This document shows positions 24,691 through 43,535 of a stretch of DNA of 64,000 nt, in pieces. Below the pieces are notes generated by a model. That model ran no database searches and was not told the DNA's origin. It worked only from the letters and a program-made list of their open reading frames with translations. This stretch comes from Steroidobacteraceae bacterium. Lineage in GTDB: Bacteria; Pseudomonadota; Gammaproteobacteria; Steroidobacterales; Steroidobacteraceae. The stretch is from positions 27,808 to 91,807 of the forward strand of contig JBJMWM010000026.1 in assembly GCA_045810105.1 (NCBI GenBank), given 5' to 3'. The translations under genes were made by a program, and so were the position numbers. The stretch's first letter is position 1; the number at the start of each line of letters is the position of its first letter.

Positions 24691-27201
24691 TCATTGCTGC
24701 GGATCGGACGCGGTAAATGGTGAGCAGCAGGGCGTGCCAATGGCATGCAACTCCATGATCTCGGCGCGCGTCCCGTCCGGATCGAGCAGGTTGAGCTGCC
24801 ACTTGGCGTCGCGGCCGATTTTGGGCGTGTTCGACTGACCGGTGAGGCGATCCTCGTTCCACAGCAGTGTGTAGGCGGTTTGCGCGTTGGGCACTCCCAG
24901 CGAAAAATGGTCGAGCACGCCCAGATCGGCGCGGGTCATCGTCGGGGGAATGCCGCGGCCGTCCGGTGTACCCACGATCATGTACTCGAGCCAGTCCGTG
25001 CCATCCGGCACCTGCTGGGAGATCCAGCTTGGCGTATCGTTCGTCATGCCGCCGAACCAATAGGGCCTGAAGCCCAGCAGCGCGCGGAAGAAGCTATCCT
25101 CCAGCGCACGGTTGTGCACGATGAACCCGACATGGATGATGTGGTTGGATAGTGAGTTGGCCGGCACGTCCGCTGTTTTCGCCGGTGGCTGCACGAATTC
25201 GATCTTGTTGCCTTCGGGGTCGATGACAGCGAACCAGCGGCTGCCATCGCTGCCCTGTTGCACCTTTGCGGGCACGGTGACTTTCCGGGCCGCCAGGTAG
25301 TTGCGAAGTGCCTGCGCATCTGGCGTGGTGAAGGCCACATGGTCCAGCCGGTTGATGGAAGTGGGTCCGGACGGTGTTGGCAGCACTTCGACGAATTGGG
25401 TCGCCGCGAAGTGATAGCGCACGCCGTTGGGGCTTTCCGGATCGTCACGCTTGATCCCGCCGAGGTCGTGAACATAGAAGCGCTCCGTCCTGGGAGGGTC
25501 CGTCGTATACACGGCAATGTGAGAGATTCCGGTGATCGGTGGGCGCGCGGAAACGGCTGCGGCGCGCGCACCGGCCTTAGGCGCGCCGCTCGCACTGCGC
25601 GGCCTCCCCCGATCTTGTTCGATACCCGCTGTCGCATCATCCGAGGCCGCGGGTAACATCTGATAGCTCACAAACGCCAGGTGAGTGGCGTCGCCCCAAC
25701 TGTACATTGAAAGGCTTCCCCGATTACCCCGGAAGCTGGCGATCGTCCGAATCAATCCATCCGCGGCACCGATGACCTTGAGAGACGTAGAGCCGATATC
25801 GGGACCGTCTGTGGTTGTGTGTCCGGCCGGCTCGCTGAGGAAGGCGACGGCTTTGCCGTCGGGTGACACATGCGGCGATGAGTTGAGATTGTCATCATCT
25901 GTAATCTGCTCCGCAGCTGAGCCATCCGGTTGCATGCGCCAGATCTGCAGTCCTCCAGAGCGCCAGGAATCGAAATAGATGAACCTGCCGTCTGGAGAAT
26001 AGTCGGGCCCGTCATTGCGGGTGTCGTTTGTCAGGCGAGTTTCGGCTCCGCCTTCCACGGGAATGGTGAAGATGTCCGCCTTGCCTGCACTGCCACGCGT
26101 GAATGCAATGGTCCGGCTGTCCGGTGCCCAGGCATGGAAATAACTGGACGTCGCACCGTTCGTCACCTTGCGCGGTGTGCCGCCACCCGCCGCAGGCAAA
26201 ACATAGACGTCGTGCAGGCCACCCGGCGCCCGGGCGCAACTCACCGCCAGCAGTTTGCCATCGGGTGACAGGCCAAAGTTTCCCGAGCAACCGATCAGCC
26301 CGCCCGTGTCTATCAGCTGCGGCGTACCCCCGGCCGGCGGGTCGAGATAGGGAATCTTCTGAATATGGCCGCCTTCATGCACATAGATGCTCTTGCCGTC
26401 CGGCGCCCAGTTCGCAGACTGCACATACGCTTTGACCGAGCGGACGACCATGGCGCGGCGGAATTGGTCGTTGATCGAAATCGTCTGCACGGTGCTGTAC
26501 AGAGAGGGTTGCAAAGTCTTCGCAGCGGCTGGCAGAGGCTCCAGGCTGACCCCGGAAAACTCAACCACATCGGTCGTCTTTGCATCGTGAGAGACGGCGC
26601 CCAGGCCAATGTAGAACGGCTCCTTGAGATGCAGTGTGACCGAGGCGCCGACGTGTTGTAGGGGCTCACCCTTGCGCGACAGAAACAGTGTGAAACTATC
26701 ACCGTGCTTTTCGATGCGGATCGTCCTGGGCGCATCGATGTTCAGCTCGACGTCCTCCGAGTTGGCGCCGCGCTCGCGACGAAACTGCAGTGCAGTGAGG
26801 CCCGAGCCATGCCAGGCGGCGCCGACGTACTCGGCGCCCGCATCGAGTGTCTGGCGAAACATCAGGATGCCCTTGCGATGCGGGTCAGGATCGTGATTAT
26901 AGGTATGCGCCGGGAAGGCAACGCTGGCCGTCAACACCATATCGCCGGACGCCTTCTTCCACAGGTAGTGGAAGTTGTCTACGTGATACCAGGTATTGGC
27001 GCCCGCCGCCGTGAGAGTGTAGACACCCGTCGCAGCACTGAAATTGGCTGTGCCGGCAGGAGTGACGCTACCAACATCGCTCTGCTCTTCGAACAGCCCC
27101 AACGAGCTCGCTCGCTCCCCGGCCTGCAGCCAGGCCCAGGCCGCGAGGCCCAGCATCAACAACCCCGCCGAGACCATCCGTCCTTTCGAATACGCCCGCA
27201 T
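24691..27201 (-). CDS. secreted multidomain protein: N-terminal jelly-roll-like domain, TolB-like PD40 beta-propeller, two C-terminal VOC/glyoxalase domains
   Basis: Signal peptide present. Repeated PD40 motifs (SPDGKLLAVS, APDSRTIAFT, SPDGRFIYFDS, SPDGKAVAFLS). VOC-like ISHIAVYTTD...FYVHDLGG, LDHVAFTTPD and IIHVGFIVHN segments. Confidence 0.75.
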   Translation of the reverse strand: MRAYSKGRMVSAGLLMLGLAAWAWLQAGERASSLGLFEEQSDVGSVTPAGTANFSAATGVYTLTAAGANTWYHVDNFHYLWKKASGDMVLTASVAFPAHTYNHDPDPHRKGILMFRQTLDAGAEYVGAAWHGSGLTALQFRRERGANSEDVELNIDAPRTIRIEKHGDSFTLFLSRKGEPLQHVGASVTLHLKEPFYIGLGAVSHDAKTTDVVEFSGVSLEPLPAAAKTLQPSLYSTVQTISINDQFRRAMVVRSVKAYVQSANWAPDGKSIYVHEGGHIQKIPYLDPPAGGTPQLIDTGGLIGCSGNFGLSPDGKLLAVSCARAPGGLHDVYVLPAAGGGTPRKVTNGATSSYFHAWAPDSRTIAFTRGSAGKADIFTIPVEGGAETRLTNDTRNDGPDYSPDGRFIYFDSWRSGGLQIWRMQPDGSAAEQITDDDNLNSSPHVSPDGKAVAFLSEPAGHTTTDGPDIGSTSLKVIGAADGLIRTIASFRGNRGSLSMYSWGDATHLAFVSYQMLPAASDDATAGIEQDRGRPRSASGAPKAGARAAAVSARPPITGISHIAVYTTDPPRTERFYVHDLGGIKRDDPESPNGVRYHFAATQFVEVLPTPSGPTSINRLDHVAFTTPDAQALRNYLAARKVTVPAKVQQGSDGSRWFAVIDPEGNKIEFVQPPAKTADVPANSLSNHIIHVGFIVHNRALEDSFFRALLGFRPYWFGGMTNDTPSWISQQVPDGTDWLEYMIVGTPDGRGIPPTMTRADLGVLDHFSLGVPNAQTAYTLLWNEDRLTGQSNTPKIGRDAKWQLNLLDPDGTRAEIMELHAIGTPCCSPFTASDPQQ

Positions 27202-27260
27202 TGTGCCCCCTCCAGCTTCTTGGTCCGACTAACTTCCCTTGATGTAGCGGCTCGCGAATG

Positions 27261-29390
27261 TCAGAACTGTCGGCCAGTTGGGTCCGGCGAGACGACAGAC
27301 AACTCGAAAGGTCCGGCCGGTAATCCCGAACTGTCGAACAACGTGCAGACCGGGCTATCGCCCCAGCAATACCGAACCCGCGCCGGCGGCGCGCCGCCGT
27401 CCGGAACTGACAGCAAAACCCGCGAGCCCTCGACCTGTGCCTCGGCGAATTGGCAGCGGCCTTGCAAGTCCCCGCACAGCTCAAAGCCAATAGGGCTTGC
27501 GTGGCTGTAGCTGACCAGGCCCTGCTCGACGCCAGCGAACTCGACGGCTATCCCGTCAGCGCTGCGGGTTGCACTGACCGCGGCGGGTCCGGATGGCGAG
27601 ACTGGCTCACCAAAGACTACATGCCGTGCCGCCTGGGCCAGGCGCTTGCCGACGTCCTGCTTGTTGGTTGGATGCAGGTTGTGGGGATCGCCCACATCGA
27701 TGGTGACCGCGAGTCCCGCATGAGGATCATTCGCGACAGCCAGCCGCTCGGCTTCGCGCACGTCGGCCCAGCCCGACTCAGCAGGCGTAATCGACGGTGG
27801 CCCGAAATTCGGCAGCTGCACAATCAGAAACGGCAGATCCGCGCCGAACTGGCGGCGCCAATCGGCCATCAGGCCCTCGAGCAGCGAGCGATAGGTCTGC
27901 GCTTCGCTGGTGTTGGATTCGCCCTGATACCACAGTACGCCACGCAGGCCGTACGAGCCGAGCGGCGCAACCATTCCGTTGTAGATCGTGCTCAGACCAC
28001 CCACGGATTCCCACGGAGTCCGCGGCGAACTGCCGATCGTCGAAGGCACGATCCGGTATTGCCAGAGGCCGTTCAACGGGATCGACCCTCCTCCCGTCAA
28101 GTGCAACGCCCGCTTGCCGCCATCTCCCAGTAATCCCCCCGGTCCCCAGGTAGTAAGTACATTGATTACCAGAACGTTGTCGCCGGCATGTAGCAGACCA
28201 GGCGGGACGGCATACGTGCGCTCGCTTTCGTACCCGAAGGTGTTGCCTAGCGCGTGGCCGTTAACCCACGTCTCATCGACCTGATTGATCGCACCTAATG
28301 ACAACGTGGCAGCTGACTTGGCCTGCGCGGCGGTCAGGCTGATGCGGGTCCGATACCACACGAGACCGGTGAAACTCTCGAGCTCGGCCACGCCCCAGTG
28401 GCGCCAATCACCGAGCCCCGCAGGCGCCGTCCGCCACTCACCTGCCGCTCCCGCCGGCCGCGTGCTCCACGGTTCAGCACCGCGGCGATCGTGCGATTTG
28501 TCGCGCCACCACTGCTCCCACTGCTGCGCAAACCCACTCTGGGCTGCGGCTGGGTCGCGTGCATACAAATTCAGCAGGTCCAACGCTGAGTCATAACCTC
28601 CATGTGCCCGCAGCGCCGGTGCGCTCATGAACGGACGGATGTTCGCGCCACCCCATGCGGATTGTACGAGGCCGATTGGAACCTGAGCGCGCTGGGTCGC
28701 CTGCAGCGCGCGGGCAAAGAAGAAGCACACAGCCGACCAGTCGGCTACGGTTTCGGGCGCCGCGATCTTCCACGTCACGGGTTTGCGGAACGTCGGCAAT
28801 GACGTTGGACTGGTGTCGTGAGCGACACTGAGGAGACGAATTGTGTTGTTGGCCGCGCCTCGGATCTCGGCATCCGAGTCACCGGAGCGCAGCACCGACA
28901 TCTCCATGTTCGATTGGCCCGAACACAGGAATACATCGCCCAGCAAAACATCGCTCGCGGACTGCCGCCTTCCGGAACTGTCCTGGGCCGCGAGCACGAA
29001 GGGTCCGCCAGCTTCCATGGCCGGCAAGACCGCGTGCCAGTGTCCGGCAGCGTCAGCTGGTGCGTGCGCGGAGGAAATGGCCTGCCCGGTCGGCGTGGCT
29101 TGCAGCGAAAGCGTCACCATTTCACCGGCGGTAGCTTCGCCCCACACGGCTATCGGCTTGTCGCGCTGCAACACTGCATGATCCCGAAACAGCTCATCAA
29201 GAAGGGCTGGCGGCGCGGTCACAACGGCCTGTGCAACTGACACGGAAGTGCGCACCACGGCGCCGACGAGCGCGGCCAACAAAACAAGCCCCCCGTACCA
29301 TCCGGCCGGTTTGCCCGCAAGTCGCCAGTGGGGCTTGGCAAACCGCCGCAACCGCCACCGCCGGTCAGTCAAGAGCCACTCTGTTTGCAT
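27261..29390 (-). CDS. SASA-family (sialate O-acetylesterase-like) carbohydrate esterase
   Basis: The SGNH-like block FLCSGQSNME is typical of the SASA/DUF303 family. An N-terminal signal anchor is present. Start is ATG 29390; TTG 29411 is an alternative. Confidence 0.8.
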   Translation of the reverse strand: MQTEWLLTDRRWRLRRFAKPHWRLAGKPAGWYGGLVLLAALVGAVVRTSVSVAQAVVTAPPALLDELFRDHAVLQRDKPIAVWGEATAGEMVTLSLQATPTGQAISSAHAPADAAGHWHAVLPAMEAGGPFVLAAQDSSGRRQSASDVLLGDVFLCSGQSNMEMSVLRSGDSDAEIRGAANNTIRLLSVAHDTSPTSLPTFRKPVTWKIAAPETVADWSAVCFFFARALQATQRAQVPIGLVQSAWGGANIRPFMSAPALRAHGGYDSALDLLNLYARDPAAAQSGFAQQWEQWWRDKSHDRRGAEPWSTRPAGAAGEWRTAPAGLGDWRHWGVAELESFTGLVWYRTRISLTAAQAKSAATLSLGAINQVDETWVNGHALGNTFGYESERTYAVPPGLLHAGDNVLVINVLTTWGPGGLLGDGGKRALHLTGGGSIPLNGLWQYRIVPSTIGSSPRTPWESVGGLSTIYNGMVAPLGSYGLRGVLWYQGESNTSEAQTYRSLLEGLMADWRRQFGADLPFLIVQLPNFGPPSITPAESGWADVREAERLAVANDPHAGLAVTIDVGDPHNLHPTNKQDVGKRLAQAARHVVFGEPVSPSGPAAVSATRSADGIAVEFAGVEQGLVSYSHASPIGFELCGDLQGRCQFAEAQVEGSRVLLSVPDGGAPPARVRYCWGDSPVCTLFDSSGLPAGPFELSVVSPDPTGRQF

Positions 29391-29432
29391 CTTCCAGGTC
29401 CGGTGTTGCAAGGCCCGTCTTAGGCGATGTAG

Positions 29433-29462
29433 TTGCCACGCGAGCGGCAGTATGCATATACT
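29433..29462 (+). promoter_or_regulatory. candidate sigma-70 promoter P1 (TTGCCA-18 bp-TATACT)
   Basis: Hexamers lie at 29433-29438 and 29457-29462. A near-identical module recurs about 493 bp downstream (P2). Confidence 0.45.
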
Positions 29463-29473
29463 CGAAGCACAAA

Positions 29474-29485
29474 GGTAGCGCTACC
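29474..29485. promoter_or_regulatory. LacI-family-type operator O1 (GGTAGCGCTACC)
   Basis: Perfect 12-bp palindrome with a central CG, extended as AAAGGTAGCGCTACCATTT. It lies 12 bp downstream of the P1 -10 and about 90 bp upstream of the divergent esterase start. Confidence 0.6.
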
Positions 29486-29799
29486 ATTTGGACCCGACGC
29501 GGTATCATCCGCTGCATTATCGGGGTTCGTCCAGCTTGTTGGTCAGCGATGGCCAGTTTTGGGGGACGTTTGAAGGGGGATCTAACATTTTGTTCCGGCA
29601 GGCATTTGCCCTACGCGCGCTGCAGGCAGCGGCACGCGGATCCGGCCGGTGCCTTCCCGAACCACACCTCGCTCAGCGGCTTCGCCGTCACCGGAGCACG
29701 CAGGTGGACTTCAATTCCGGCTATGACATCAACAGCCATTTCGGTAGGCGCTTACCCTCGGCGTCGACGCGAAGTTGTAGCCTGCGGAAGTCCCGTGCA

Positions 29800-29833
29800 G
29801 GGCCGCCCCCATTGCGTGGCGGCCCTTTTTTAT
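29800..29833 (+). terminator. rho-independent terminator with no upstream plus-strand gene
   Basis: GGGCCGCC-(10 nt loop)-GGCGGCCC followed by TTTTTTAT. The orientation only works on the plus strand. Confidence 0.7.
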
Positions 29834-29925
29834 CAACCACCGTCCCGTGCGTCGCACCGGCTTGCTCCCCACGTCCATGGGGCAGCCGCAGATGTTGCAA
29901 TCGCGCCGCAAAGCCGCAATTGCAG

Positions 29926-29955
29926 TTGCTACGGGGTTGGACGTGTGCATATACT
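29926..29955 (+). promoter_or_regulatory. candidate sigma-70 promoter P2 (TTGCTA-18 bp-TATACT) for the TonB-dependent receptor operon
   Basis: Hexamers lie at 29926-29931 and 29950-29955. The module is homologous to P1 over about 57 bp, including the operator. Confidence 0.45.
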
Positions 29956-29967
29956 CGGGCCCACCAA

Positions 29968-29981
29968 GATAGCGCTACCAT
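29968..29981. promoter_or_regulatory. LacI-family-type operator O2 (GATAGCGCTACCAT)
   Basis: It shares the TAGCGCTACCAT core with O1 and sits at the same spacing from the -10 hexamer. Confidence 0.55.
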
Positions 29982-30030
29982 TACCGCAGGGGGACTTCCC
30001 TTGCCAGCATGAGGGCGCTATCTTCCGTGT

Positions 30031-30046
30031 ATGACAGCGCTGACAT
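30031..30046. promoter_or_regulatory. possible additional LacI-type site (ATGACAGCGCTGACAT)
   Basis: 14 of 16 positions are palindromic around a central CAGCGCTG. It lies in the receptor leader. Confidence 0.3.
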
Positions 30047-30202
30047 CCGGGGCGCTGCGGGTCGGGCTCGGGCGCGATGCCTTAGCGAGCGGGAGACGAT
30101 AGTGAGGGGGTTAAACGTTTTCTTCAGTAGTGGACCGTACCCGTCACGGGAGCGGACCTGCTGTTGCTTGTTTGCAACATTCTACGGTTGGGGGGATTTC
30201 GA

Positions 30203-33193
30203 ATGAGCCGAAAAACACGGCGAAATGCGTTCCGTAAGGCAGCCAGGACTTCATGTGCGACGGCCGACAAGGCCACCTACGCCAAGTTAGGTCTTTCAGG
30301 CTTCACGTTGAGCTCCATGGCCATCGGCAGCACGGTGTTTGCCGCGGACGCGGCGGACGTTCCAGCCGCAACTACCGCCAAATCATCCGAGCCGCAGGAA
30401 CTGCAGGAAGTGGTGGTCACGGGTATCCGGGCCTCCCTGCAGCGCTCGCTCGACATCAAACAGAAGGCGATCGGCGTCGTGGACGCGGTCTCGGCCGAGG
30501 ACATCGGTCAGTTCCCCGATGCCTCGATCGGTGAAGCCCTGTCGCGTATCCCCGGTGTCACGGTGAACCGCGGCTCCATCAACCAGATGGCCGGCGCCGG
30601 TGCACCCACAGCCACGGGCGCCACGACCGGAATTACCGTGCGCGGCTTCGGTACGCAGTTCAACGAAATCCTGACCGAGGGCCGGCAAGTCGCCTCGGGC
30701 AACGGACAGAACTTCGACTTCTCGGCGTTGGGCGCCGAATACGTCGGTGAGCTCGACATTCACAAGACTCCCGACTACAGCCTCTCCGCTGGCGCGGTCG
30801 GCGCGACGATCAACATCAAGTCGCCGAAGCCTTTCGATAAGCCCGGGATGCAGGCGCGCGCCTTCGCGGCCGCCAACGACAGTCAAAAGGATGGTGGCGT
30901 CAAGCCCGCCTTCGGTGCTCTGTTCAGCGATACCTTCTTCGACGATACGTTCGGTATCCTGGTCGCCGGCGACTATACGAAAAAAGAGGTCGTCGGCCAC
31001 CATTTCGATATCGTGGGTTGGAAAGGAGCGTACCTGGATCCCTGCCAGATGCTTGGCGGGCCGCAACCTTGCCAAAAGGACGCCAAGGGCAACTATATTA
31101 CGAAGCCCAACTCCTTCCCGAGCTGGTATATCCAGGACGAGGCCATGTACCTCGAGCGTACCGAGTCGACGCGCCGGGACGGGCGGGTGGCTCTGCAGTG
31201 GCGCCCCTCGGACACTGTCCTGATCACTTTCGACGACAACTATTCGTCTGACAGCCAGGTGACCCACCGCTGGCAGTACAGCACTTGGTTCGGATGCTTC
31301 CCGTCCAACTGCATGAACGTCCAGCAGGACTCCAACGGCACGATCACTGACTTCACCAACGCCAATGCGCCGACGGACTTCAACGCCAACATCGACCGGA
31401 CTTACATCACAACCAACACTCCAGGGCTCAATGTGGTCTGGGACGTCAATGACCACTTGACCGGGTTGCTGGATGTCAGTCAGTCCACGGCTCACTTGAA
31501 TCCGCGCCACACATGGTCGGCGTTCGATATCGACGTCGGCTACGGTAACGGTACGAACAACTATACCGGCGGCGTCCACGTCACCGGCGACCCCAAGACG
31601 CTGCCCTATTGGACCGCGTACGGCCCCAACACGGTCGCGGGGACCGCAAATGCCTACTCGCCGAACGTCCTCGGGCAGAACCCCTATATCATCGGCTCGC
31701 ACGTGGTTCCGATAGGGGTCCAGTACAACACCGACAAGATCAATCAGATCAAGCTCGAGGGGACCTGGCACACCGCAGACACAACGGTGAGTTTCGGAGC
31801 CCACATCCTCCAGGACGTCTGGGACTCGAGCAGCGGGAACACATTGACCAACGGCGAATGGCAGCTGTGGTCGGGATACGGACCGGCCTCGGGCAACGAC
31901 GCTGGCGTCGCCCTGCCGCAGAAGTTATTCACGCCCATATCGCTCCCGAACTTCATTCCCGGCTTCAACGGCGGCAAGCTGCCGCCCGGGGTGAACCTGT
32001 ACAACCCGTTCGACGTGCTCAACTATCTGATCACTCAACCCATCAATCCGAAATACGCACCGAACAAGGGTTATCCAAACTATGCGGGCGGCTACCCGGT
32101 GGTACCGCAGGCCCCTGGCAATGTGCAACACGTGGATCGCAAGAACTACGCCCCATTCATCACCGCGGACCACACCTTCCCCCTCGGGGACATGAGCTTC
32201 AACGCCAGAGTTGGCTTCCGGTATCAGAAGACGAACGTATACATCGCGGGGCTGACGCAGCCGCTGGTCAGCCTGACAGTGCCACAGGGTGACCTCACGG
32301 CCTATAATTTCAATCTTGGCGATGCTGTTCCCGTCTCGGCCAAGAACTCCTATGGCTATTTCCTGCCGTCTCTGGATCTCAATCTCCTGGTCCGGCCGAA
32401 CCTGAAAGTGCGACTCGATTACTCGCGCACCGAGAGTCCGCCAAACAACCAGCAGCTCATCCCGACACTCAATTACGGTGGGCGCGTGAGCGCACTCACA
32501 GCGCAGGGCAACGACCCATACCTGCTGCCCTATCTGTCGCAAAACTTCGACCTGGGTGCCGAGTGGTACTACGCTTCGAACGACTACGTATCTGTAGACG
32601 GCTTCTTCAAGCATGTCACTCAGTTCCCAGTCTCGACCGTGACACCCATCAGTGTGCCGGGCGTACTCGACAAGGACGGTAATCTGGCGGTCTTCCAGGA
32701 GAGCACCATTACCAACGGTGGATCCGCCAACGTGACAGGCGTAGAGTTGACCTGGCAGCAGATGTTGCCGTACGGTTTCGGATTCCAGGTGAACGGAACC
32801 TATGTACACAGCAACGCCAGTTTCGACCCCTACAAGCTGCAGGCCAACCAGTTCGCCGTCCCGGGAATCGGCCACTCGGCGAACCTCATCGCCTTCTATC
32901 AGAACTACGGGTTCCAGGCGCGTCTGGCGCTGCAGTGGCAGGGCGAGCAGCTGCTGCAGATCGGTCAGGAGCAGAACGGCGGCACGTTCCCGAACGAGCC
33001 CACGTACCTGAAGGCCAACACCGAGTTGGATTTCAGCACTCAGTACGACATCAGTGAGCACTTCAACGTGTTCTTCGAGGCAATCAACCTTACGGATAAC
33101 GTGTACCACACCCGTGGCCGCTTCGATAACCAGACGCTGAACGTGGTGGACTATGGCCGCTCGTTCACGATAGGAGCTCGCGCTAAGTTCTAA
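30203..33193 (+). CDS. TonB-dependent receptor (carbohydrate-scavenging type)
   Basis: Signal peptide, then QEVVVTGIRASLQRSLDIKQKAIGVVDAVSAEDIGQFPDASIGEALSRIPGV (plug/TonB-box region). The C-terminal barrel ends ...IGARAKF. ATG 30203 has a G-rich Shine-Dalgarno. Confidence 0.9.
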   Translation: MSRKTRRNAFRKAARTSCATADKATYAKLGLSGFTLSSMAIGSTVFAADAADVPAATTAKSSEPQELQEVVVTGIRASLQRSLDIKQKAIGVVDAVSAEDIGQFPDASIGEALSRIPGVTVNRGSINQMAGAGAPTATGATTGITVRGFGTQFNEILTEGRQVASGNGQNFDFSALGAEYVGELDIHKTPDYSLSAGAVGATINIKSPKPFDKPGMQARAFAAANDSQKDGGVKPAFGALFSDTFFDDTFGILVAGDYTKKEVVGHHFDIVGWKGAYLDPCQMLGGPQPCQKDAKGNYITKPNSFPSWYIQDEAMYLERTESTRRDGRVALQWRPSDTVLITFDDNYSSDSQVTHRWQYSTWFGCFPSNCMNVQQDSNGTITDFTNANAPTDFNANIDRTYITTNTPGLNVVWDVNDHLTGLLDVSQSTAHLNPRHTWSAFDIDVGYGNGTNNYTGGVHVTGDPKTLPYWTAYGPNTVAGTANAYSPNVLGQNPYIIGSHVVPIGVQYNTDKINQIKLEGTWHTADTTVSFGAHILQDVWDSSSGNTLTNGEWQLWSGYGPASGNDAGVALPQKLFTPISLPNFIPGFNGGKLPPGVNLYNPFDVLNYLITQPINPKYAPNKGYPNYAGGYPVVPQAPGNVQHVDRKNYAPFITADHTFPLGDMSFNARVGFRYQKTNVYIAGLTQPLVSLTVPQGDLTAYNFNLGDAVPVSAKNSYGYFLPSLDLNLLVRPNLKVRLDYSRTESPPNNQQLIPTLNYGGRVSALTAQGNDPYLLPYLSQNFDLGAEWYYASNDYVSVDGFFKHVTQFPVSTVTPISVPGVLDKDGNLAVFQESTITNGGSANVTGVELTWQQMLPYGFGFQVNGTYVHSNASFDPYKLQANQFAVPGIGHSANLIAFYQNYGFQARLALQWQGEQLLQIGQEQNGGTFPNEPTYLKANTELDFSTQYDISEHFNVFFEAINLTDNVYHTRGRFDNQTLNVVDYGRSFTIGARAKF

Positions 33194-33195
33194 AC

Positions 33196-34743
33196 GTGGT
33201 ACAGCCGCTCAAAACGGTCGTCATCGTCGGTGGAGGAACCGCCGGGTGGCTCACCGCAGGGCTCATCGCCGCCCGCCATCAGGCTCGGATGAAGGCGGGC
33301 GGCCTCTCTGTAACGCTGATTGAGTCACCGGACATCAAGATCATCGGCGTTGGGGAGGGTACGTGGCCGACGATGCGCGCATCCTTGGAGGGGATGGGCG
33401 TATCGGAAACTGCACTCTTCCGCGAGTGCGACGCGGCGTTCAAACAGGGAGGCAAATTCGCTGGCTGGACCACGGGGGCGGCGGATGATGCGTACTATCA
33501 TCCCTTGATGCTTCCGCAGGGATTCAGTCAGCTCAATCTCGTGCCGCATTGGATGCAGGAAGCGCGAAGCCGAAGCTTCTGCGACTTCGTTACACCGCAG
33601 GGTAAGCTGTGCGATGACGGGCTGGCTCCCAAGCTGATCACGAGCCCGGAATACCGGGCGCTCGCGAATTACTCCTATCATCTGGATGCAGGCAAATTCG
33701 CGCCCTTTCTCGCCACGCACTGTACGCAGAAGCTCGGTGTCCGCCATGTCCTGGCTGATGTCGTGCAGGTCAATCAGAGCGAGTCTGGCGATATCGAGAG
33801 CGTGCTCACGCCGCAGGCCGGTGAGATCTCGGGCGACTTGTTCATCGACTGCAGCGGCTTCTCCGCGCTGCTCATTGGCAAGACGCTCGGTGTCGGCTTC
33901 AAAGATTGTGGCGACATCCTCTTCTGCGATACGGCGCTCGCGGCCCAGGTTCCGTATGCGACGCCCGATGAGCCCATGGCATCTCAGACCCTCTCCACTG
34001 CACAGGAAGCCGGCTGGATCTGGGATATCTCTCTACCGACGCGACGCGGGGTCGGTTACGTGTATTCGAGCCGCCACTCGAGCGAGGCAGCTGCGCGTGA
34101 GACTTTGCAACGCTACATTGGACCGCAACATCGCGACCTGCCCGCTCGTAAAATCCCGATCCGTTCCGGCCATAGACAGACCTTCTGGAAAAACAACTGC
34201 ATCGCGGTCGGACTCGCAGGTGGTTTCCTCGAGCCGCTGGAGTCTTCCGCGATCGTATTGGTAGAGCTGTCGGCGAAGTTGATCGCCGAGCAGCTGCCCG
34301 CCAACCGGGAGATCATGGACATCGTGGCGCGGCGCTTCAATGACGTGACGATGTACCGGTGGGGCCGGATCATCGATTTCCTGAAGCTCCATTACGTTCT
34401 CACGCGGCGCACCGATACCGCGTTCTGGCGCGAAAATGTTGACCGTGCGAGCATTCCGGAACGGCTCCAGGAGCTGTTGAAGCTCTGGAAGTACCACCCG
34501 CCGTGGTTTTTCGATGAATTCGACCGGCTGGAAGAGGTTTTTCCGGCCGCCAGCTATCAATACGTGCTCTACGGAATGGGATTCGAGAGTGAGGCGCGGC
34601 CGCAGGATACAATCGATACCGAGCTGCTCGCAGCGCGGCTGCGGCAGGAGAATGAGCGGCAGACCTTCGAATTGCGCTCGCGGCTGCCCAGGAACCGCGA
34701 GCTGCTGAATAAGATCTACGAGTACGGGCTGCAGCCCGTTTGA
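33196..34743 (+). CDS. flavin-dependent tryptophan-halogenase-family protein 1
   Basis: GGGTAGW FAD motif, GVGEGT, and Lys in AAFKQGGKF (aligns with the PrnA Lys79 region). The WxWxIP-like motif is GWIWDIS (Pro replaced by Ser). GFLEPLESS is present. GTG start lies 2 nt after the receptor stop. Confidence 0.85.
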   Translation: MVQPLKTVVIVGGGTAGWLTAGLIAARHQARMKAGGLSVTLIESPDIKIIGVGEGTWPTMRASLEGMGVSETALFRECDAAFKQGGKFAGWTTGAADDAYYHPLMLPQGFSQLNLVPHWMQEARSRSFCDFVTPQGKLCDDGLAPKLITSPEYRALANYSYHLDAGKFAPFLATHCTQKLGVRHVLADVVQVNQSESGDIESVLTPQAGEISGDLFIDCSGFSALLIGKTLGVGFKDCGDILFCDTALAAQVPYATPDEPMASQTLSTAQEAGWIWDISLPTRRGVGYVYSSRHSSEAAARETLQRYIGPQHRDLPARKIPIRSGHRQTFWKNNCIAVGLAGGFLEPLESSAIVLVELSAKLIAEQLPANREIMDIVARRFNDVTMYRWGRIIDFLKLHYVLTRRTDTAFWRENVDRASIPERLQELLKLWKYHPPWFFDEFDRLEEVFPAASYQYVLYGMGFESEARPQDTIDTELLAARLRQENERQTFELRSRLPRNRELLNKIYEYGLQPV

Positions 34744-34757
34744 CCAGTTACGGGTCA

Positions 34758-34791
34758 CGACCCGTACGACCCGTACGACCCGTACGACCCG
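34758..34791. repeat. 9-bp tandem repeat CGACCCGTA x 3.8
   Basis: Read directly from the sequence. It lies between the halogenase stop (34743) and the sapC ATG (34800). It is in frame with TTG 34740, giving (RPV)n. Confidence 0.85.
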
Positions 34792-34799
34792 AGTGCACC

Positions 34800-35540
34800 A
34801 TGACGCAGATCGTTCCCCTCAACAAAAACACCCACCGCTCCTTGAAAGTCGACGGGCGCTCTTCGGCTGCCTACGGTGACAATCGGCGCTTCGTGCAGGT
34901 GATCGTCAAGGAATTTCCACAACTGCTGGTCCACTACCCGATTCTGTTCTCGAAGGACCCGAAGACGGGCCACTTCTACTGTGGCGCGATGCTGGGTTTT
35001 GACGAGGCCGAGAATCTTTTCCTCGACGAGTGGGCGGATCGCGATGTCTACCGTCCGCTCATGCTGCAGCGCGGTCCCTTCTACGCAAATGGCCCGGACC
35101 TCGCGATCGATCTCGACGATCCGCGGGTAGGCGTGGAAGGCGGTAAGACTCTCTTCACCGACCAGGGGGAGCCGAGCCGCTACCTGCAGAGCATCATCTG
35201 GGCCTTCCAGGATCTGAGCCCCGGCGTCGAAATGACGAAACTGTTCATCGAGCGGCTCCTGGAGCTGAAGCTCATCGAGCCCGTCGATGTCGAGGTGGAG
35301 TGTGACGATGGCACGATCCGCAGGTGTATCGGCCTCTACACGATCAACCAGGACGAGTTGATGAGGCTGCCCGATGCAGCCGTCGTGGAGCTTTTCAGGC
35401 GCGGATATCTGCGCCTGATCCATCACATGATCGCCTCGCTCAAGCAGGTTCGGGTGATGGCGCGGAAGAAGAACTCGCGGCTCCTGAGGGCAACCGAGGC
35501 TCTGGCGCGAACGCACGCGCCGGCGGCGGCCATCGGCTGA
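34800..35540 (+). CDS. SapC family protein
   Basis: MTQIVPLNKNTHRSLKV...FPQLLVHYPILFSKDPKTGHFYCGAMLGF is the SapC N-terminal pattern. The alternative TTG 34740 forms a TTGA overlap with the halogenase stop. Confidence 0.8.
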   Translation: MTQIVPLNKNTHRSLKVDGRSSAAYGDNRRFVQVIVKEFPQLLVHYPILFSKDPKTGHFYCGAMLGFDEAENLFLDEWADRDVYRPLMLQRGPFYANGPDLAIDLDDPRVGVEGGKTLFTDQGEPSRYLQSIIWAFQDLSPGVEMTKLFIERLLELKLIEPVDVEVECDDGTIRRCIGLYTINQDELMRLPDAAVVELFRRGYLRLIHHMIASLKQVRVMARKKNSRLLRATEALARTHAPAAAIG

Positions 35541-35569
35541 CGTCAGACGAACGCTCCGCGAGCCTCTGC

Positions 35570-36586
35570 ATGCCTCACGCACTCACTGAGATCGCCGCCC
35601 GCGATCTGGATGCGGCGCTTTTCCTGCAACAGGTCGTGCAGGCGTGTCGGCCGGTGGTCATCCGTGGATTGATTGACAACTGGCCGATCGTAAGCGCAGC
35701 GCGCGGCTCGCCGCGGGGGTTGAAGGACTATCTTGCGGCGTTCGACAACGGGGGGAATGTCGAAGTATTCTTCGGGGATCCCGAGATCCGTGGCCAGTAT
35801 TACTACAACCCCGGGCTGGACGGATTCAACTTCGAGCGGCGCATGATGAAGTTCATGGAGGCCATGGATTGCATCCTGGAAGCGCTGGATCATCCGGGTA
35901 CGCGGTCGGTTTATGTTGGCTCCGTACCTACCGGCGATTGCCTGCCGGGTTTCGCCGCCGGCAATCCCGTGCCCTTCGCCGCTTCCGCAGCTGGCGCGCG
36001 GATCTGGCTCGGAACTGCCTCGAACGTCTCGAGCCACTACGATACTTTCGATAACCTCGCCTGTGTCGTTGCCGGGCGGCGCCGATTCACGCTCTACGCT
36101 CCCGAGCTCATCAGCAGCCTCTATATAGGCCCCCTCGACAACACCATGTCCGGACCGCCGGTCAGCCTGGCCGCTTCGGCATCGGCGGGCAGCAGCGACA
36201 AGTTCCCGCTGTTCGAGCAGATCCGTGACCAGGCGCTGCGGGTGGAGCTCGAGGCCGGGGACGCCCTGTACCTGCCGAAGCTGTGGTGGCATCAAGTTGA
36301 GTCGCTCGCTGACTTCAACGGGCTCGTCAACTACTGGTGGGATGCATTCAGCGCCGGCCCGGATGCTCCTTACACCGCCCTCCTCCTCAGCATGATCACC
36401 ATTGCAGAGCGGCCGCCTGCCGAGCGGCGGGCATGGAAGGCTTTCTTCGATCACTATGTTTTTCGTACTGCCGGCCATCCGCTTGCGCATCTGCCTCCCG
36501 AGCACCATGGGCTGCTTGGGCCCCTCAAACCAGACAACTACTCGAAAATCCGCGCGCGCATCCTGCGTATGTTGAGGGCGCTGTAG
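35570..36586 (+). CDS. cupin-like JmjC-type (Cupin_8) 2OG oxygenase family protein
   Basis: HxD is seen in SSHYDTFDN and the distal His in LWWHQVESL. The ORF-track extension upstream overlaps sapC, so ATG 35570 was chosen. Confidence 0.8.
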   Translation: MPHALTEIAARDLDAALFLQQVVQACRPVVIRGLIDNWPIVSAARGSPRGLKDYLAAFDNGGNVEVFFGDPEIRGQYYYNPGLDGFNFERRMMKFMEAMDCILEALDHPGTRSVYVGSVPTGDCLPGFAAGNPVPFAASAAGARIWLGTASNVSSHYDTFDNLACVVAGRRRFTLYAPELISSLYIGPLDNTMSGPPVSLAASASAGSSDKFPLFEQIRDQALRVELEAGDALYLPKLWWHQVESLADFNGLVNYWWDAFSAGPDAPYTALLLSMITIAERPPAERRAWKAFFDHYVFRTAGHPLAHLPPEHHGLLGPLKPDNYSKIRARILRMLRAL

Positions 36587-36605
36587 GCTAAGGACGAGCC
36601 ACGTC

Positions 36606-38819
36606 ATGTTGACAGGTCAGATGTTCGAGGCTGCCATGCTCCACCACCGCGGTGGACGTCTGAGGGAGGCCGAGCGTCTCTATCGGCTAATCCTGGAGGC
36701 AGACTCCAACCATGCCGAGGCATTGCACATGCTCGGCGTGCTCGCTTATCAGACCGGTCAACAGCAACTCGCAATCGAGATGATCAGCCGCGCGATCGCC
36801 CGGAACGGGCAGATGCCCGCCTTTCACAACAACCTGGGCAATGTATACGCAGCTGCCGGCAATTGGCAGGATGCGGAAACCTCGTTCCGACGGGCCTTGG
36901 ATCGAAAGCCGGATTACGCCGAGGCTCACTACAACCTGGGGAATGCCCTGCAGGCCCAGAACAATCTCGAGGCTGCGGCAGCCGCGTATCAGCACGCTCT
37001 GCGGCTTCGGCCAAACCATGCCGAGACCTGCCTCAACCTCAGCAACGTTCTGCAAGCGCAGGGCAAGTTGGAGGAAGCGCTCGAAGCCTCTCAGCGGGCG
37101 ATTGCCTTGAAGCCGGATCTGGCCGCCGCGCACAATAATCTGGGCAACATCCTGGCAGCGCAGAACCGCTTCGAAGCTGCGGTGGCTGCATACTCCCGAG
37201 CGCTCACCCTGAGGCCCAACCTCGCGGAAGCGCATCACAATCGGGGGCTCGCCCTGTTGAACGCGGGACGGGCAGACGAAGCGGCGGTGTCGTGCCGGCA
37301 AGCCGTGTCGCATAAGCCGGATTACATCGCAGCCTACATCACTCTCGGGCATGCCCTGACACAGAGCGCAGATACTGAAGAAGCTTTACGGTGCTATCAA
37401 CGCGCCATCACTCTCGATCCAAACTGTGGGGAGGCCATGTGGGGGTGTGCGGTTGCGCCAATTCCGATCGTCTGTGGCAGCGTCGTTGAGAGCAAGGCGG
37501 CAGCGGAAACATTTGGTCGCCACCTGGACACATTGGTGCAGTGGAGTGGCGCGCACCCGGGAAAACTCGGCGAAGCCGTCGGCCGGGTTCAGCCGTTCTA
37601 TCTCGCATACCGGCCATCCGATGCGACGGCCGTCCTGTCCCGCTACGGGGACCTGGCAAGTACCGAAGGCACCGCCTATTGGAAGCCGCCGGCAGTAGCC
37701 GATCGAGGGTCTCGACCGGATCGGGACCGCATCCGCATAGCGGTAGTGAGTGGGCACGTGAGGCAGCGCCATCCTGTCTGGGAAATCATACTGCGTGGGC
37801 TGATTGCGCACCTGGATCCACAGCAATTCGAGGTGGTTCTGTATCACACGGGTGCGGCTGTCGATGAGGAGACCAACTGGGCCCGCGGGCAAGTCGCACG
37901 CTTCGTGCAGGGCCCCAAACCAGTGAAGGTTTGGCTGGCCGAGATCGTCCACGGGCAACCCGATGTGATCTTTTATCCCGAGCTGGGAATGGATCCAAAC
38001 ACCGGTACCCTGGCCGCTTTGCGGCTGGCCCCTCTGCAGATCGCAGGCTGGGGACACCCGATCACGACCGGGCTACCGAGCATCGACTGGTTTCTGTCTG
38101 CCGAGCTCCTCGAGAGTCCGCAGGCTGAGCAACACTACCGAGAGAGACTCGTACGCTTGCCCGGAACGGGCGTGTACACCGAATTTCGCGCACAGCAGAC
38201 CGAGAGTTGGGATGGCCCCGAGCGGCGCAAAGACTTTGTCCGCTTCGCGTTGTGCCAGCAGCCTGCCAAATTCGATCCGGGGGACGATGTGCTCCTCGCG
38301 CGCCTTGCGAAGGCTGTCGGAGCCGCTGAATTCTGGCTGGCGACACCGAGGAACATGCCATGGACCGCTGCGAAGCTCCGCGAGCGGCTTTCGCTCGCTT
38401 TCCGAGCTGAGGGCCTCGATCCGGAGGCGTACCTGCATACAACACCCTGGTTGCCCCGCCAGCAGTTCCTGAGCTTCCTCGAGGAAATGGACATTTATCT
38501 GGATTGCCCCGCTTTCTCCGGCTACACGACAGCCTGGCAGGCGCTCCATTGCGGTCTGCCGATCGTTACACTCGAGGGGCAGTACCTTCGTCAACGGCTC
38601 TCAGCAGGTTTGTTGAGGCAGGTCGGGACAACCGACGGCATCGCTTCCTCCCGCGAGCAGTACTCAGCGACGGCGATTGGTTGGGCGAACGAATGTCGGG
38701 ACGCCGAGCGCTGGGCTGCGCGCCGCGCCGAGCTTCGTCGCGCAGCGGCACGGGCCGACGGAAACGCTGCCGCGATCCGCGTGTTCGAGCAGCGACTACG
38801 GGAAGCGTTTCAGCGCTAA
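36606..38819 (+). CDS. TPR-repeat protein with C-terminal SPINDLY/OGT-like (GT41) glycosyltransferase domain
   Basis: About seven TPR units (AEAHYNLGNALQAQ, AETCLNLSNVLQAQ, AAAHNNLGNILAAQ ...). The C-terminal RIRIAVVSGHVRQRHPVWEIILRGLIAHLDPQQFEVVLY is typical of the GT41 catalytic half. Confidence 0.8.
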   Translation: MLTGQMFEAAMLHHRGGRLREAERLYRLILEADSNHAEALHMLGVLAYQTGQQQLAIEMISRAIARNGQMPAFHNNLGNVYAAAGNWQDAETSFRRALDRKPDYAEAHYNLGNALQAQNNLEAAAAAYQHALRLRPNHAETCLNLSNVLQAQGKLEEALEASQRAIALKPDLAAAHNNLGNILAAQNRFEAAVAAYSRALTLRPNLAEAHHNRGLALLNAGRADEAAVSCRQAVSHKPDYIAAYITLGHALTQSADTEEALRCYQRAITLDPNCGEAMWGCAVAPIPIVCGSVVESKAAAETFGRHLDTLVQWSGAHPGKLGEAVGRVQPFYLAYRPSDATAVLSRYGDLASTEGTAYWKPPAVADRGSRPDRDRIRIAVVSGHVRQRHPVWEIILRGLIAHLDPQQFEVVLYHTGAAVDEETNWARGQVARFVQGPKPVKVWLAEIVHGQPDVIFYPELGMDPNTGTLAALRLAPLQIAGWGHPITTGLPSIDWFLSAELLESPQAEQHYRERLVRLPGTGVYTEFRAQQTESWDGPERRKDFVRFALCQQPAKFDPGDDVLLARLAKAVGAAEFWLATPRNMPWTAAKLRERLSLAFRAEGLDPEAYLHTTPWLPRQQFLSFLEEMDIYLDCPAFSGYTTAWQALHCGLPIVTLEGQYLRQRLSAGLLRQVGTTDGIASSREQYSATAIGWANECRDAERWAARRAELRRAAARADGNAAAIRVFEQRLREAFQR

Positions 38820-38854
38820 CAGTCCGTCGGACTTGCGCATGCGCCGCCGGCGCA

Positions 38855-38882
38855 GCCGGCAAAAACCACGCTTTTTGCCGGC
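38855..38882. other. perfect 11-bp-stem hairpin GCCGGCAAAAA-(6)-TTTTTGCCGGC
   Basis: Read directly from the convergent intergenic region. No flanking T-run was seen, so a terminator function is uncertain. Confidence 0.4.
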
Positions 38883-38901
38883 GACCTACGAAGTGATGTC
38901 C

Positions 38902-38926
38902 GAAAAACGGCTGCAAGCCGTTTTTC
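38902..38926. terminator. bidirectional intrinsic terminator GAAAAACGGCT-gca-AGCCGTTTTTC
   Basis: A GC core stem is flanked by A5 on one side and T5 on the other. It lies between the convergent TPR-GT41 and halogenase-2 genes. Confidence 0.65.
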
Positions 38927-38933
38927 TAATCGA

Positions 38934-40463
38934 CTAGAGTGCAGGAAGCCCATGCGGTTCTTGAGGTGCTGCGCAGTGCTGGGCTATGAAAGCCTCATGC
39001 AATGGCATGTCGGCAGCACACTTGGCAACGACGTCTCGTATATTGTCGAGCGCTCTCTGACCCCGTTCGAAGGTCAACGCGTCAGCCCTCGGGTCGTAGC
39101 CTTCGGGGCGCACATCCTGACCTACGAACAGGTACAGCCAGCTCTGCACGTTGAATAGCTCGTTCTCATCGCGCACGATGCGGCCGTAGCTGCGGAAGAG
39201 ATCCAGGCGCTCCCTGAGGCTGTCGGGCAGCTCCATGTTGCGGCAGTAGCGCCAGAACTCGCCCTCGCGCTCCGTCTTGTTGTAGTGGACTATCAGGAAA
39301 TCGCGGATGCGCTCGTACTCGAAGGCAAGCTGCCGGTTGTAACGATCGATGTCCGGTTGACTGAACCGGCGGTCCGGAAAGAATTGCCAAAGCAGCGCGA
39401 TGCCGCGCTGGATCAGGTAAATACCACTCGATTCGAGCGGCTCGAGAAATCCCGCGGCAAGCCCGATCGCGACGCAGTTCTTGTTCCAGCTCAGCCGCCG
39501 CCGTCCCGTCGTAAATCGCAGCGGCAGTGGATCGCGCAACGCGCGGCCCTCGAGGCTCGACATCAGCTTCTGCTGCGCCTCATCGTCCTGGACGAAGCTA
39601 CTGCAATACACATACCCGTTACCCACCCGGTGCTGCAGAGGAATTCGCCATTGCCAGCCGACATCACGCGCAGTAGCGAGGGTGTGCGAGGAAAACGGGC
39701 CAGTCCGTTCGCATGGGACCGCTACAGCACGGTCACACGGCAACCACCGCGTCCAGTCCTCGTATCCGGTCTTCAGCGCCCCTTCGATCAGGACACCGCG
39801 GAAGCCGGTACAGTCGACAAAGAGATCAGCCTCGATCTGCTCGCCACTCTCGAGCGTGAGTGACGCGATGAAGCCGTCCTCGGGCCTGAGGGTAACGCCT
39901 TGGAGTTTGCCCTCCGTCCGGATAACGCCGCGCGCTTCTGCGTAGGTCCGCAGGTAAGCCGTCAAGAGCGAGGCGTCCAGATGCAAGGCATAGGTGATGG
40001 TCTCAACGGGCGACTTCGGGACTTTGATCGGTCGCATGAAGCGTCCCTGACGAGCCGCCACGGCCTGCAACGAATACTCTTCGAGCGGGCTCGCCCGGCC
40101 GCGCTCGCGGTGTTTGAACCAGTAGGCAGAGAATTCCACTCCCCCCTGAGGCAAACCCGTTGGGCCGAAGGGGTGGATGTAGGAGTGCCCGGGCCGCGTC
40201 CAATCCTTGAATTCGATGCCGAGCTTGAAGCTTGCCTGGGTCTTGCGGATCAGCTCATTCTCGTCGATGCCGAGCAGCCTGATGGCATCGATGATAGGCG
40301 GGATCGTTGCCTCACCCACCCCGATGGTACCAATTTCGGCCGACTCGATCAGACGGATGCCGCATTCCGTGCCCTCGAGGAATTTGGCCAGTATGGCAGC
40401 CGTCATCCACCCGGCTGTGCCCCCGCCGACGATGGCGATGCTGCGGATTCGATCGAGGGGCAC
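38934..40463 (-). CDS. flavin-dependent tryptophan-halogenase-family protein 2
   Basis: GGGTAGW, GVGEATIP, Lys in ASFKLGIEF, canonical WxWxIP as GWQWRIPL, and GFLEPLESS. GTG start. Confidence 0.85.
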   Translation of the reverse strand: MPLDRIRSIAIVGGGTAGWMTAAILAKFLEGTECGIRLIESAEIGTIGVGEATIPPIIDAIRLLGIDENELIRKTQASFKLGIEFKDWTRPGHSYIHPFGPTGLPQGGVEFSAYWFKHRERGRASPLEEYSLQAVAARQGRFMRPIKVPKSPVETITYALHLDASLLTAYLRTYAEARGVIRTEGKLQGVTLRPEDGFIASLTLESGEQIEADLFVDCTGFRGVLIEGALKTGYEDWTRWLPCDRAVAVPCERTGPFSSHTLATARDVGWQWRIPLQHRVGNGYVYCSSFVQDDEAQQKLMSSLEGRALRDPLPLRFTTGRRRLSWNKNCVAIGLAAGFLEPLESSGIYLIQRGIALLWQFFPDRRFSQPDIDRYNRQLAFEYERIRDFLIVHYNKTEREGEFWRYCRNMELPDSLRERLDLFRSYGRIVRDENELFNVQSWLYLFVGQDVRPEGYDPRADALTFERGQRALDNIRDVVAKCAADMPLHEAFIAQHCAAPQEPHGLPAL

Positions 40464-40481
40464 GGCCGGAAGACCGGGACG

Positions 40482-43255: not shown

Positions 43256-43535
43256 CTGACTTGCTCCAAACGTAGACTGCTCTCAAATTGCGAATCGCCC
43301 GCCGGGGGACTATCTGCGGCTTGCCGCCGGGTCACGGCTGGGCGCACCTGGATGGCGGGACGAGTGGCCGTGGCGCCGACCCACTGTTAACCGCGTCGCC
43401 TGGGTTGTGCAGGCGCACAACGCCCACCGCCGTTTCAGGGCGTCATGCCAACGGCCGGCGAGGTGTTGTTTTCGTACCTGGCCCCCCTTTGCCAAACGTC
43501 TCGGTGCCGGCACCAGCCAGTGCACCACAATGACG

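Follow-up and report, generated by a model that had tools for sequence, protein, structure and literature searches.

The locus described here comes from a Steroidobacteraceae bacterium and lies within a stretch of 64,000 nucleotides, referred to below as the window. It consists of an intact gene for a TonB-dependent receptor (TBDT), a divergently oriented esterase gene and, between the two, a pair of promoter–operator modules (P1 and P2) separated by a spacer that contains a hairpin; xylose genes are found farther along. The features, apart from the interior of the spacer, are these:

27261–29390, minus strand: SASA-type carbohydrate esterase gene (Pfam SASA PF03629, 3.7e-22), with its ATG at 29390
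29402–29411, plus strand: conserved motif GGTGTTGCAA, 5' of the P1 -35 element, seen in alignments
29428–29488, plus strand: module P1, with -35 TTGCCA (29433–29438), -10 TATACT (29457–29462) and predicted xyl-box AGGTAGCGCTACCA (29473–29486)
29800–29831, plus strand: hairpin GGGCCGCC-10 nt-GGCGGCCC plus T6 (stem 29800–29807 / 29818–29825, T6 29826–29831), in a post-stop position
29921–29982, plus strand: module P2, with -35 TTGCTA (29926–29931), -10 TATACT (29950–29955) and predicted xyl-box GATAGCGCTACC (29968–29979)
29983–30202, plus strand: 5' leader of TBDT1, with family-conserved motifs at 30030–30046, 30102–30112 and 30163–30178
30203–33193, plus strand: TBDT1, the intact receptor gene (Pfam Plug and barrel; TIGR01782, 504 bits)
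40482–43255, minus strand: xylB-xylA (xylB TIGR01312, 547 bits; xylA TIGR02630, 616 bits)
43538–43549, minus strand: third predicted xyl-box GATAGCGCTACC, between xylR and xylB-xylA
43636–44640, minus strand: xylR (LacI and Peripla_BP domains), adjoining xylB and xylA

TBDT1 belongs to the TonB-Xanth-Caul subfamily. Directly 3' of it come genes encoding a tryptophan-halogenase-like protein, SapC and proteins of the cupin-8 and TPR types, and a second halogenase-like gene is also among the neighbours; with the esterase gene and TBDT1 itself, this set fits a xylan-type TBDT locus. Exact-protein look-ups of the window TBDT and halogenase returned no record. The esterase gene, whose start codon is 38 nt from the P1 module and ~85–95 nt from the P1 xyl-box, is syntenic with its counterparts in six related loci (L003, L004, L025, L080, L083 and L088). 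All genes between 22752 and 29390 are on the minus strand, and the statement of an earlier note on this DNA that no plus-strand gene lies upstream of P1 is thus correct.

That note had also described two homologous modules, each made of a promoter with an 18-bp spacer and a LacI-type palindrome, and had linked them to xylose or xylan; all three points were borne out. A repeat search found the copies at 29428–29464 and 29921–29957 to be 76% identical at an offset of 493 nt, and those at 29468–29488 and 29962–29982 to be 90% identical at an offset of 494 nt, and alignments extended both modules ~25 nt further upstream than first described, to include a common GRTGTTGCAA motif (29402–29411 in P1, 29891–29900 in P2). 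In a promoter scan, the sigma-70-like elements TTGCCA-18-TATACT (P1, 29433–29462) and TTGCTA-18-TATACT (P2, 29926–29955) were the sole matches, each on the plus strand, within the 1.8 kb covered, against 0.4 in shuffled sequence; P1 agrees with the consensus at 10/12 positions and is closer to it than P2. The palindromes, GGTAGCGCTACC at 29474–29485 in P1 and GATAGCGCTACC at 29968–29979 in P2, conform to the 14-bp pattern TGGTAGCGCTA(A/C)CA as AGGTAGCGCTACCA (29473–29486) and AGATAGCGCTACCA (29967–29980), and so does the third box at 43538–43549. The xyl-box published for Xanthomonas XylR is TGGTAGCGCTAACA, and the core of the window palindrome, GGTAGCGCTACC, equals the published core (PMC10380989). 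The regulator encoded at 43636–44640 matches generic LacI models only, while xylB (xylulokinase) and xylA (xylose isomerase) both exceed the NCBIfam equivalog cut-offs. Taken together, the palindromes of P1 and P2 are, by sequence, xyl-boxes, the predicted operators of a LacI-family XylR, and P2 is, on the same sequence grounds, the working promoter–operator of the intact TBDT operon.

The number of such palindromes in the window is not significant (4 at ≤2 mismatches, against 2.3 expected), and the significance of the modules comes instead from relatives. A genome scan with the receptor protein yielded 76 loci, of which the top ~40 are from Steroidobacteraceae and the closest shows 84% amino-acid identity. 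The module stands 5' of ~35 TBDT orthologues and paralogues in the form -35 / 17–18 nt / (T/C)ATACT / 11–13 nt / GGTAGCGCTACCAT, where the -35 reads TTGaca or TTGcta, and a xyl-box precedes the TBDT gene in ~35/39 Steroidobacteraceae loci; the module is usually placed 144–150 nt, or 185–240 nt, ahead of the MSRKTRRNA start. A profile of module, leader and 5' coding sequence (CDS) from 24 related loci matched P1 over 29428–29599 at E 5.1e-11 and P2 through the receptor start codon at E 6.6e-50. RNAalifold applied to 17 TBDT leaders gave no consensus structure.

The same comparison bears on how the pair arose. The earlier note spoke of a duplicated module, and the homology holds, whereas a recent local duplication does not: P2 is nearest (81–83%) to the modules that occur singly in the syntenic loci L003, L004 and L025, and P1, at 75% identity to P2, stands no nearer to it than to the modules of other paralogues. 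The pair is therefore not a recent local duplication; as far as sequence relationships tell, P1 and P2 belong to one family of modules, each member of which goes with a paralogous TBDT gene. That P2 and TBDT1 were recently duplicated in tandem was likewise ruled out, because the 3' end of the receptor remnant described below and its hairpin are of a different TBDT subtype and P1 shows no special closeness to P2.

The hairpin between the modules, an 8-bp GC stem (8–9 bp) with a T6 tract, was present as the earlier note had described it, with a folding energy of -19.7 kcal/mol (z -2.5). It was missed by the terminator scan only because its loop of 10 nt exceeds the limit of 8 nt. A GC stem-loop followed by a U tract is found at 29800–29831, so by sequence the hairpin resembles an intrinsic terminator; the T6 and the -19.7 kcal/mol predict efficient termination. 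It had been described as an orphan, and it is not one: the same stem, at the same offset after the TBDT stop codon, occurs in 12 related loci (L009, L011, L012, L014, L016, L017, L026, L027, L029–L031 and L033). There the receptor stop is followed by 20–30 nt and then by GGGGCCGCC-loop-GGCGGCCCC-T4–9, as in the window. In these loci the hairpin sits between the TBDT gene and co-oriented halogenase and SapC genes, and it must therefore permit read-through. TBDT1 belongs to another subtype, in which the halogenase gene begins immediately behind the stop codon, which indicates that the gene that left the hairpin in the spacer was a different paralogue.

An RNA running from P1 to this hairpin had been put forward in the earlier note as a dedicated small RNA (sRNA) or a riboswitch-type leader. 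An Rfam scan at permissive E-values gave only RcsR1 (15.8 bits against a gathering threshold of 60, E 2.8), mainly on the terminator hairpin, in agreement with the note, which had called for such a scan and had itself recognised no known RNA. The minimum free energy of the predicted P1–hairpin transcript shows no excess over shuffles (z -0.92), and no conserved or structured non-coding RNA emerged from the comparison with relatives, in which the body is 48–67% identical with indels of 50–100 nt. A protein-coding role fares no better. A small protein gene between the modules (in the open reading frames 29231–30034, 29488–30012 or 29721–29981) could appeal to the existence of these frames and to the annotation of similar ones by gene callers in L080 (211 aa) and L083 (232 aa), but long spurious frames are expected in high-GC DNA, the frames cross promoter, operator and hairpin, indels leave them without conservation, and no Pfam match was obtained either for those in the window or for those in L080 and L083. 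We regard this reading as hardly credible; the earlier note, too, had favoured a non-coding explanation over the first two of these frames.

What the spacer does contain is receptor-gene sequence. Its predicted parts, all of which would derive from one lost TBDT gene, are as follows:

29489–29574, plus strand: leader remnant, with a Shine-Dalgarno(SD)-like TTGGGGGACGTTTGAA at 29559–29574; the leader profile reaches 29599
29575–29689, plus strand: decayed first codons and the junction of a large (~2.7 kb) deletion, as placed by alignment with the L080 relic
29690–29780, plus strand: 3' coding remnant, consisting of STQVDFNSGYDINSHF, a ~102-nt deletion, a 1-nt loss, ALTLGVDAKL and TAG at 29778–29780

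An nhmmer profile of TBDT 3' ends, built from 34 other loci and run on the whole window, found the end of the intact gene at E 3e-67 and, as the next match, 29696–29744 at E 8.9e-7. Its top sub-threshold match, 29744–29780, lies in collinear order, with 91 nt lost on balance, and its end coincides exactly with the stop codon. A full-length DNA profile run on the spacer recovered only 29696–29745 (profile positions 2654–2703 of 2826). By blastn, 29690–29742 matches ~10 related receptor genes, always at the same place, 130–180 nt before the stop, and by tblastn the relic matches residues 952–967 of TBDT1; a TBDT protein HMM run on six-frame translations picked up only a 17-residue piece with a weak score. 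In translation the remnant reads STQVDFNSGYDINSHF and, after a 1-nt shift, ALTLGVDAKL followed by TAG, resembling the intact receptor C-terminus ...NTELDFSTQYDISEHF...YGRSFTIGARAKF*. Alignment to relatives places the ~102-nt deletion between two ATTTC repeats (junction 29738–29742), with 1 base lost in addition. The frame is thus broken: ~30 of ~990 codons are left, there is a frameshift at 29742–29744 and no start codon remains. The earlier note had named a decayed gene remnant with detectable protein homology as the finding that would overturn its RNA, and this is what the window and, more strongly, its relatives revealed.

The 5' part of the relic is less readily seen from the window itself. 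The segment at 29559–29574 resembles the SD region of TBDT1 (30188–30203) and aligns with the L080 relic, and direct alignment of the sequences downstream of P1 and P2 was not significant (36/300 shuffles were as good), so this part of the relic cannot be explained from the window alone. In the window, 29575–29689 showed no significant homology to anything, profile searches included; it is the most indel-rich stretch, with 48–61% identity to L080 and L083 and 58–106 gap columns.

Relatives supplied the missing pieces. They were gathered by a metagenome scan with a 20-mer spanning the internal deletion junction, and by protein search and contig look-up. The 20-mer scan returned three contigs, 89–98% identical, all with the order P1–relic–hairpin–P2. 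L080–82 and L083–84 are more distant: their receptors are 89% and 86% identical to TBDT1, respectively. In both L080 and L083 the layout is esterase, P1, relic, hairpin, P2, TBDT, and the two xyl-boxes are 524 nt (L080) and 626 nt (L083) apart, compared with 494 nt in the window. The spacers of L080 and L083 match the last ~170 nt of the full-length TBDT DNA profile at E 8e-29 and 2e-30, respectively. The L080 relic has a complete C-terminus in one frame (~60 last codons, ...VDFNSSYDINSHFNVCFAAINLT..STHGRFKEQVLDRVDFGRRFTLGVDAKL*), and at its other end the SD survives, as do a start codon altered by mutation and ~22 N-terminal codons (E 1.7e-27 with the leader and 5' CDS profile, which the relic matches up to model position 379); the C-terminus of the L083 relic is internally degraded. 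An intact form of the lost receptor would be expected to end in ...GRRFTLGVDAKL*. In the middle of the relic, alignment shows the lineages to differ by indels of 50–100 nt, a different set in each, which points to a remnant decaying stepwise.

Four syntenic loci, L003, L004, L025 and L088, carry just one module and nothing of the relic (receptor identity 59–79% for L088, L003 and L004, 48% for L025), and L001, the closest species of the genome collection, has a different upstream gene. An intact copy of the lost gene, here called TBDT-X, between esterase and TBDT was not found in L001, L003, L004, L025, L085, L087 or L088, so its former presence there is inferred.

All these observations can be integrated if 29428–29831 is the fossil of a second xyl-box-controlled receptor gene, TBDT-X, that formerly stood between the esterase and the receptor operon, an interpretation that we hold with high confidence. 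What the locus shows, on this evidence, is the ordinary decay of a gene rather than a new regulatory RNA. A deletion of ~2.7 kb would have removed nearly the whole TBDT-X coding sequence, leaving behind the P1 promoter with its XylR operator, part of the leader with the ribosome-binding site and a few 5' codons and, from the other end of the gene, its last ~60 codons and stop codon, followed by the hairpin terminator that belonged to it. Later and smaller deletions, specific to each lineage, would then have eroded the stump, here through the ~102-nt slippage deletion and the loss of 1 nt.

The divergence among lineages allows the parts of the relic to be compared with a neutral proxy, the third-codon-position divergence of Hal1, which amounts to 9% for L080 and 16% for L083. 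Between the window and L080 / L083, the 3' coding part of the relic is 91% / 88% identical, about neutral, the leader 67% / 54% and the middle 48% / 61% with many gaps. The P1 -35, -10 and 14-bp xyl-box are identical at 26/26 positions in both L080 and L083 (xyl-box 14/14), and the hairpin at 26/26 and 25/26 positions, respectively; the T tract reads TTTTC in L080 and TTTAT in L083. Conservation of the spacer in relatives, which the earlier note had proposed as a check on its RNA, thus speaks against it, the predicted body being full of lineage-specific indels. From these alignments, the RNA body is decaying and the promoter–operator core is maintained. Conservation of the hairpin and of the P1 hexamers exceeds that of the relic around them, which could hint at a retained function at the RNA level or in termination.

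Three readings of this pattern were weighed. The conservation of P1 core and hairpin at 9–16% neutral divergence might reflect a dedicated XylR-regulated sRNA gene, in which P1 drives a ~365-nt trans-acting RNA and selection acts on that RNA. The strength of the P1 promoter, above that of P2 in its agreement with the consensus, and the strong hairpin with T6 point the same way, as does the lack of differences from the L078 contig (97% identical) over 29690–29835, although the comparison with L078 is shallow and mosaic (a central block 2–3% divergent, flanks 12–20%), too much so to show constraint. Against this, the body of the RNA consists of TBDT coding and leader sequence, its 50–100-nt deletions differ between lineages, L080 and L083 have degraded T tracts, and neither an Rfam family nor excess folding was detected; we consider such a gene very unlikely.

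The weakened T tracts of L080 and L083 could be read differently, as part of a tandem promoter arrangement in which P1 transcripts read through a leaky hairpin and the relic, as a long leader subject to attenuation, contributes xylose-inducible transcription to the receptor operon. The required read-through in the 12 loci with the hairpin, and the invariance of the P1 -35 and -10 and not of the xyl-box alone, are in keeping with this, but invariance of 12 hexamer positions is weakly significant at such divergence, P2 alone suffices in most relatives, and the T6 hairpin of the window, at its folding energy, predicts efficient termination. This arrangement, which is compatible with the relic origin, seems to us possible but doubtful.

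In a third reading, P1 owes its survival solely to the divergent esterase gene, for which it would provide the XylR operator and perhaps also the promoter region, and its promoter activity on the plus strand is incidental. Acetyl-esterases belong to the xylan regulons of Xanthomonas. The esterase ATG lies within the short distances given above, the xyl-box is conserved at 14/14 positions, and in L003, L004, L025 and L088 one module serves the esterase–TBDT intergenic region. On the other side, the promoter scan gave no convincing minus-strand promoter for the esterase; the best candidate from a relaxed search of that strand is not conserved in the closest strains and is disrupted in L078, and the conservation extends to the plus-strand hexamers, which the reading does not require. 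This possibility, also compatible with a relic origin, stands for us in even balance.

With TBDT-X as a decayed gene, the present behaviour of the locus can be pictured as follows. Each xyl-box begins ~5 nt downstream of the predicted transcription start and is centred near +11, so placed that XylR bound to both boxes would block P1 and P2 when xylose or xylo-oligosaccharides are lacking. With inducer, P2 would drive the receptor operon, and P1, whose core elements are still perfect, would most likely still fire and yield a non-functional relic RNA of ~365 nt that stops at the hairpin, a fraction of the transcripts continuing through P2 into the receptor gene. A xylose-inducible P1-to-hairpin transcript of ~365 nt is, on the sequence, a reasonable prediction. 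The P1 xyl-box probably also holds the divergent esterase gene under XylR control, and this would explain why P1 is kept while the rest decays.

The locus adds an instance to two familiar categories, the xyl-box regulon and gene decay. It resembles the XylR regulon of Xanthomonas and Caulobacter in its 14-bp palindrome with core GGTAGCGCTACC (published Xanthomonas box TGGTAGCGCTAACA; PMC10380989), in the LacI-type gene that adjoins xylB-xylA, in boxes 5' of TBDT, esterase and xylAB, and in a TonB-dependent transporter as the centre of xylan loci, the window TBDT being of the TonB-Xanth-Caul subfamily. It differs in that the box is fixed just 3' of the conserved -10 (T/C)ATACT within an ~85-nt module shared by many TBDT paralogues, and in its Steroidobacteraceae host, known here from metagenome-assembled genomes only; XylR binding and induction are predictions in this host. 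The XylR xyl-box regulon would thereby extend, with a very regular promoter–operator module, to uncultured soil Steroidobacteraceae. Like other bacterial pseudogenes that arose by internal deletion, the relic shows a frameshift, a direct-repeat deletion, stepwise lineage-specific erosion and a near-neutral coding remnant. Unlike the typical case, its promoter–operator is fully preserved; the probable reason is that the divergent gene uses this element as well, or that it continues to feed the operon on its 3' side. The hairpin recalls intercistronic attenuators 3' of receptor genes, with GC stem and T run 20–30 nt after the TBDT stop in 12 loci, but in the window the gene before it is gone and what follows it is another promoter.

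The stepwise decay of a paralogous receptor gene is thus documented in three lineages, and what appeared to be an orphan sRNA locus is explained, which calls for caution when sRNAs are predicted from intergenic promoter–terminator pairs. In exaptation models for enterobacterial sRNAs, such RNAs are born from gene remnants. The relic shares with them a promoter and an intrinsic terminator that bracket former-gene DNA, and a predicted regulated RNA of a few hundred nt; it differs in that the RNA body lacks conservation and its indel pattern argues against function. That the relic has been exapted as a xylose-inducible RNA, acting in trans as a decoy for a factor or sRNA by which translation of the paralogous receptor mRNAs is controlled, or in cis as a second, attenuated xyl-box promoter by which receptor induction is tuned, appears improbable to us. 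On this reading, the RNA would contain the initial portion of the conserved TBDT leader along with two SD-like, G-rich motifs at 29559–29582. Such a case would show an sRNA or leader at the moment of its birth out of a deleted gene and, if expressed and functional, would neatly illustrate how a gene stump can give rise to an sRNA, although nothing here requires that.

The two promoter and xyl-box modules upstream of the TonB-dependent receptor gene, P1 and P2, share an additional element, GRTGTTGCAA, which is found at 29402-29411 in P1 and 29891-29900 in P2, that is, 22-26 nt 5' of the -35 hexamer. This motif is also conserved upstream of the -35 in five related loci (L003, L004, L025, L080 and L083), and the module must therefore be considered to span about 85 nt, and not the roughly 57 bp attributed to it in the earlier note. 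Its reverse complement, TTGCAAC, could represent either a -35 hexamer for divergent transcription or a site recognised by a different factor. As for the xyl-box (the predicted XylR operator) of xylB, it overlaps a putative -10 (TTGACG-N17-...TACCAT; window 43530-43575, minus strand), whereas in the receptor modules the -10 precedes the box.

The leader of the intact receptor gene carries a second palindrome, TATGACAGCGCTGACAT, at 30030-30046, roughly 60 nt beyond the xyl-box in the downstream direction. The same palindrome is present in related locus L001 (9824-9840), as well as in L080 and L083, and is unchanged in a species whose receptor shows only 84% identity; it may constitute a second LacI-type operator. 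At 30013-30024 the xyl-box is partially repeated in inverted orientation (GGGCGCTATCTT); this copy, reported as an inverted repeat of 27 nt whose complementarity is 70%, could pair with the xyl-box in the mRNA leader. Receptor leaders have in common, before the Shine-Dalgarno sequence, the elements GTGAGGGGGWT and GTTGC-N6-GCAAC (window 30102-30112 and 30163-30178, respectively; L003-L044). These leaders yielded no Rfam match, and RNAalifold gave no consensus structure for them.

A hairpin of the form GGGGCCGCC..GGCGGCCCC-Tn is conserved between the receptor and halogenase genes in one receptor subtype, being located 20-60 nt past the receptor stop codon in twelve related loci (L009, L011, L012, L014, L016, L017, L026, L027, L029, L030, L031 and L033), where it probably acts as an attenuator between cistrons. 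The intact gene of the window belongs to the other subtype, which is devoid of this hairpin. In two long-read MAGs (L036 and L044), tblastn found the receptor orthologues broken into many frameshifted pieces, which are either pseudogenes or the product of assembly indel errors.

Comparison of window 28551-42790 with the 97%-identical contig L078, and of 25650-30282 with the related contig L077, revealed a mosaic pattern of divergence: about 2-3% over 29300-40500, a block comprising the receptor, halogenase, SapC, cupin and TPR genes, versus 12-20% in the genes on either side, those for the esterase and xylB. Such a mosaic suggests that the block was recently recombined or transferred between strains.

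The window also contains tandem repeats:
34757-34791: 9-nt repeat ACGACCCGT, 3.9 perfect copies, at the 5' end of the SapC gene
45938-46091: 13-nt repeat CTGGCCCGCACCG, 11.5 copies with 92% matches, in the interval that separates a Ser/Thr kinase gene from the xylR region
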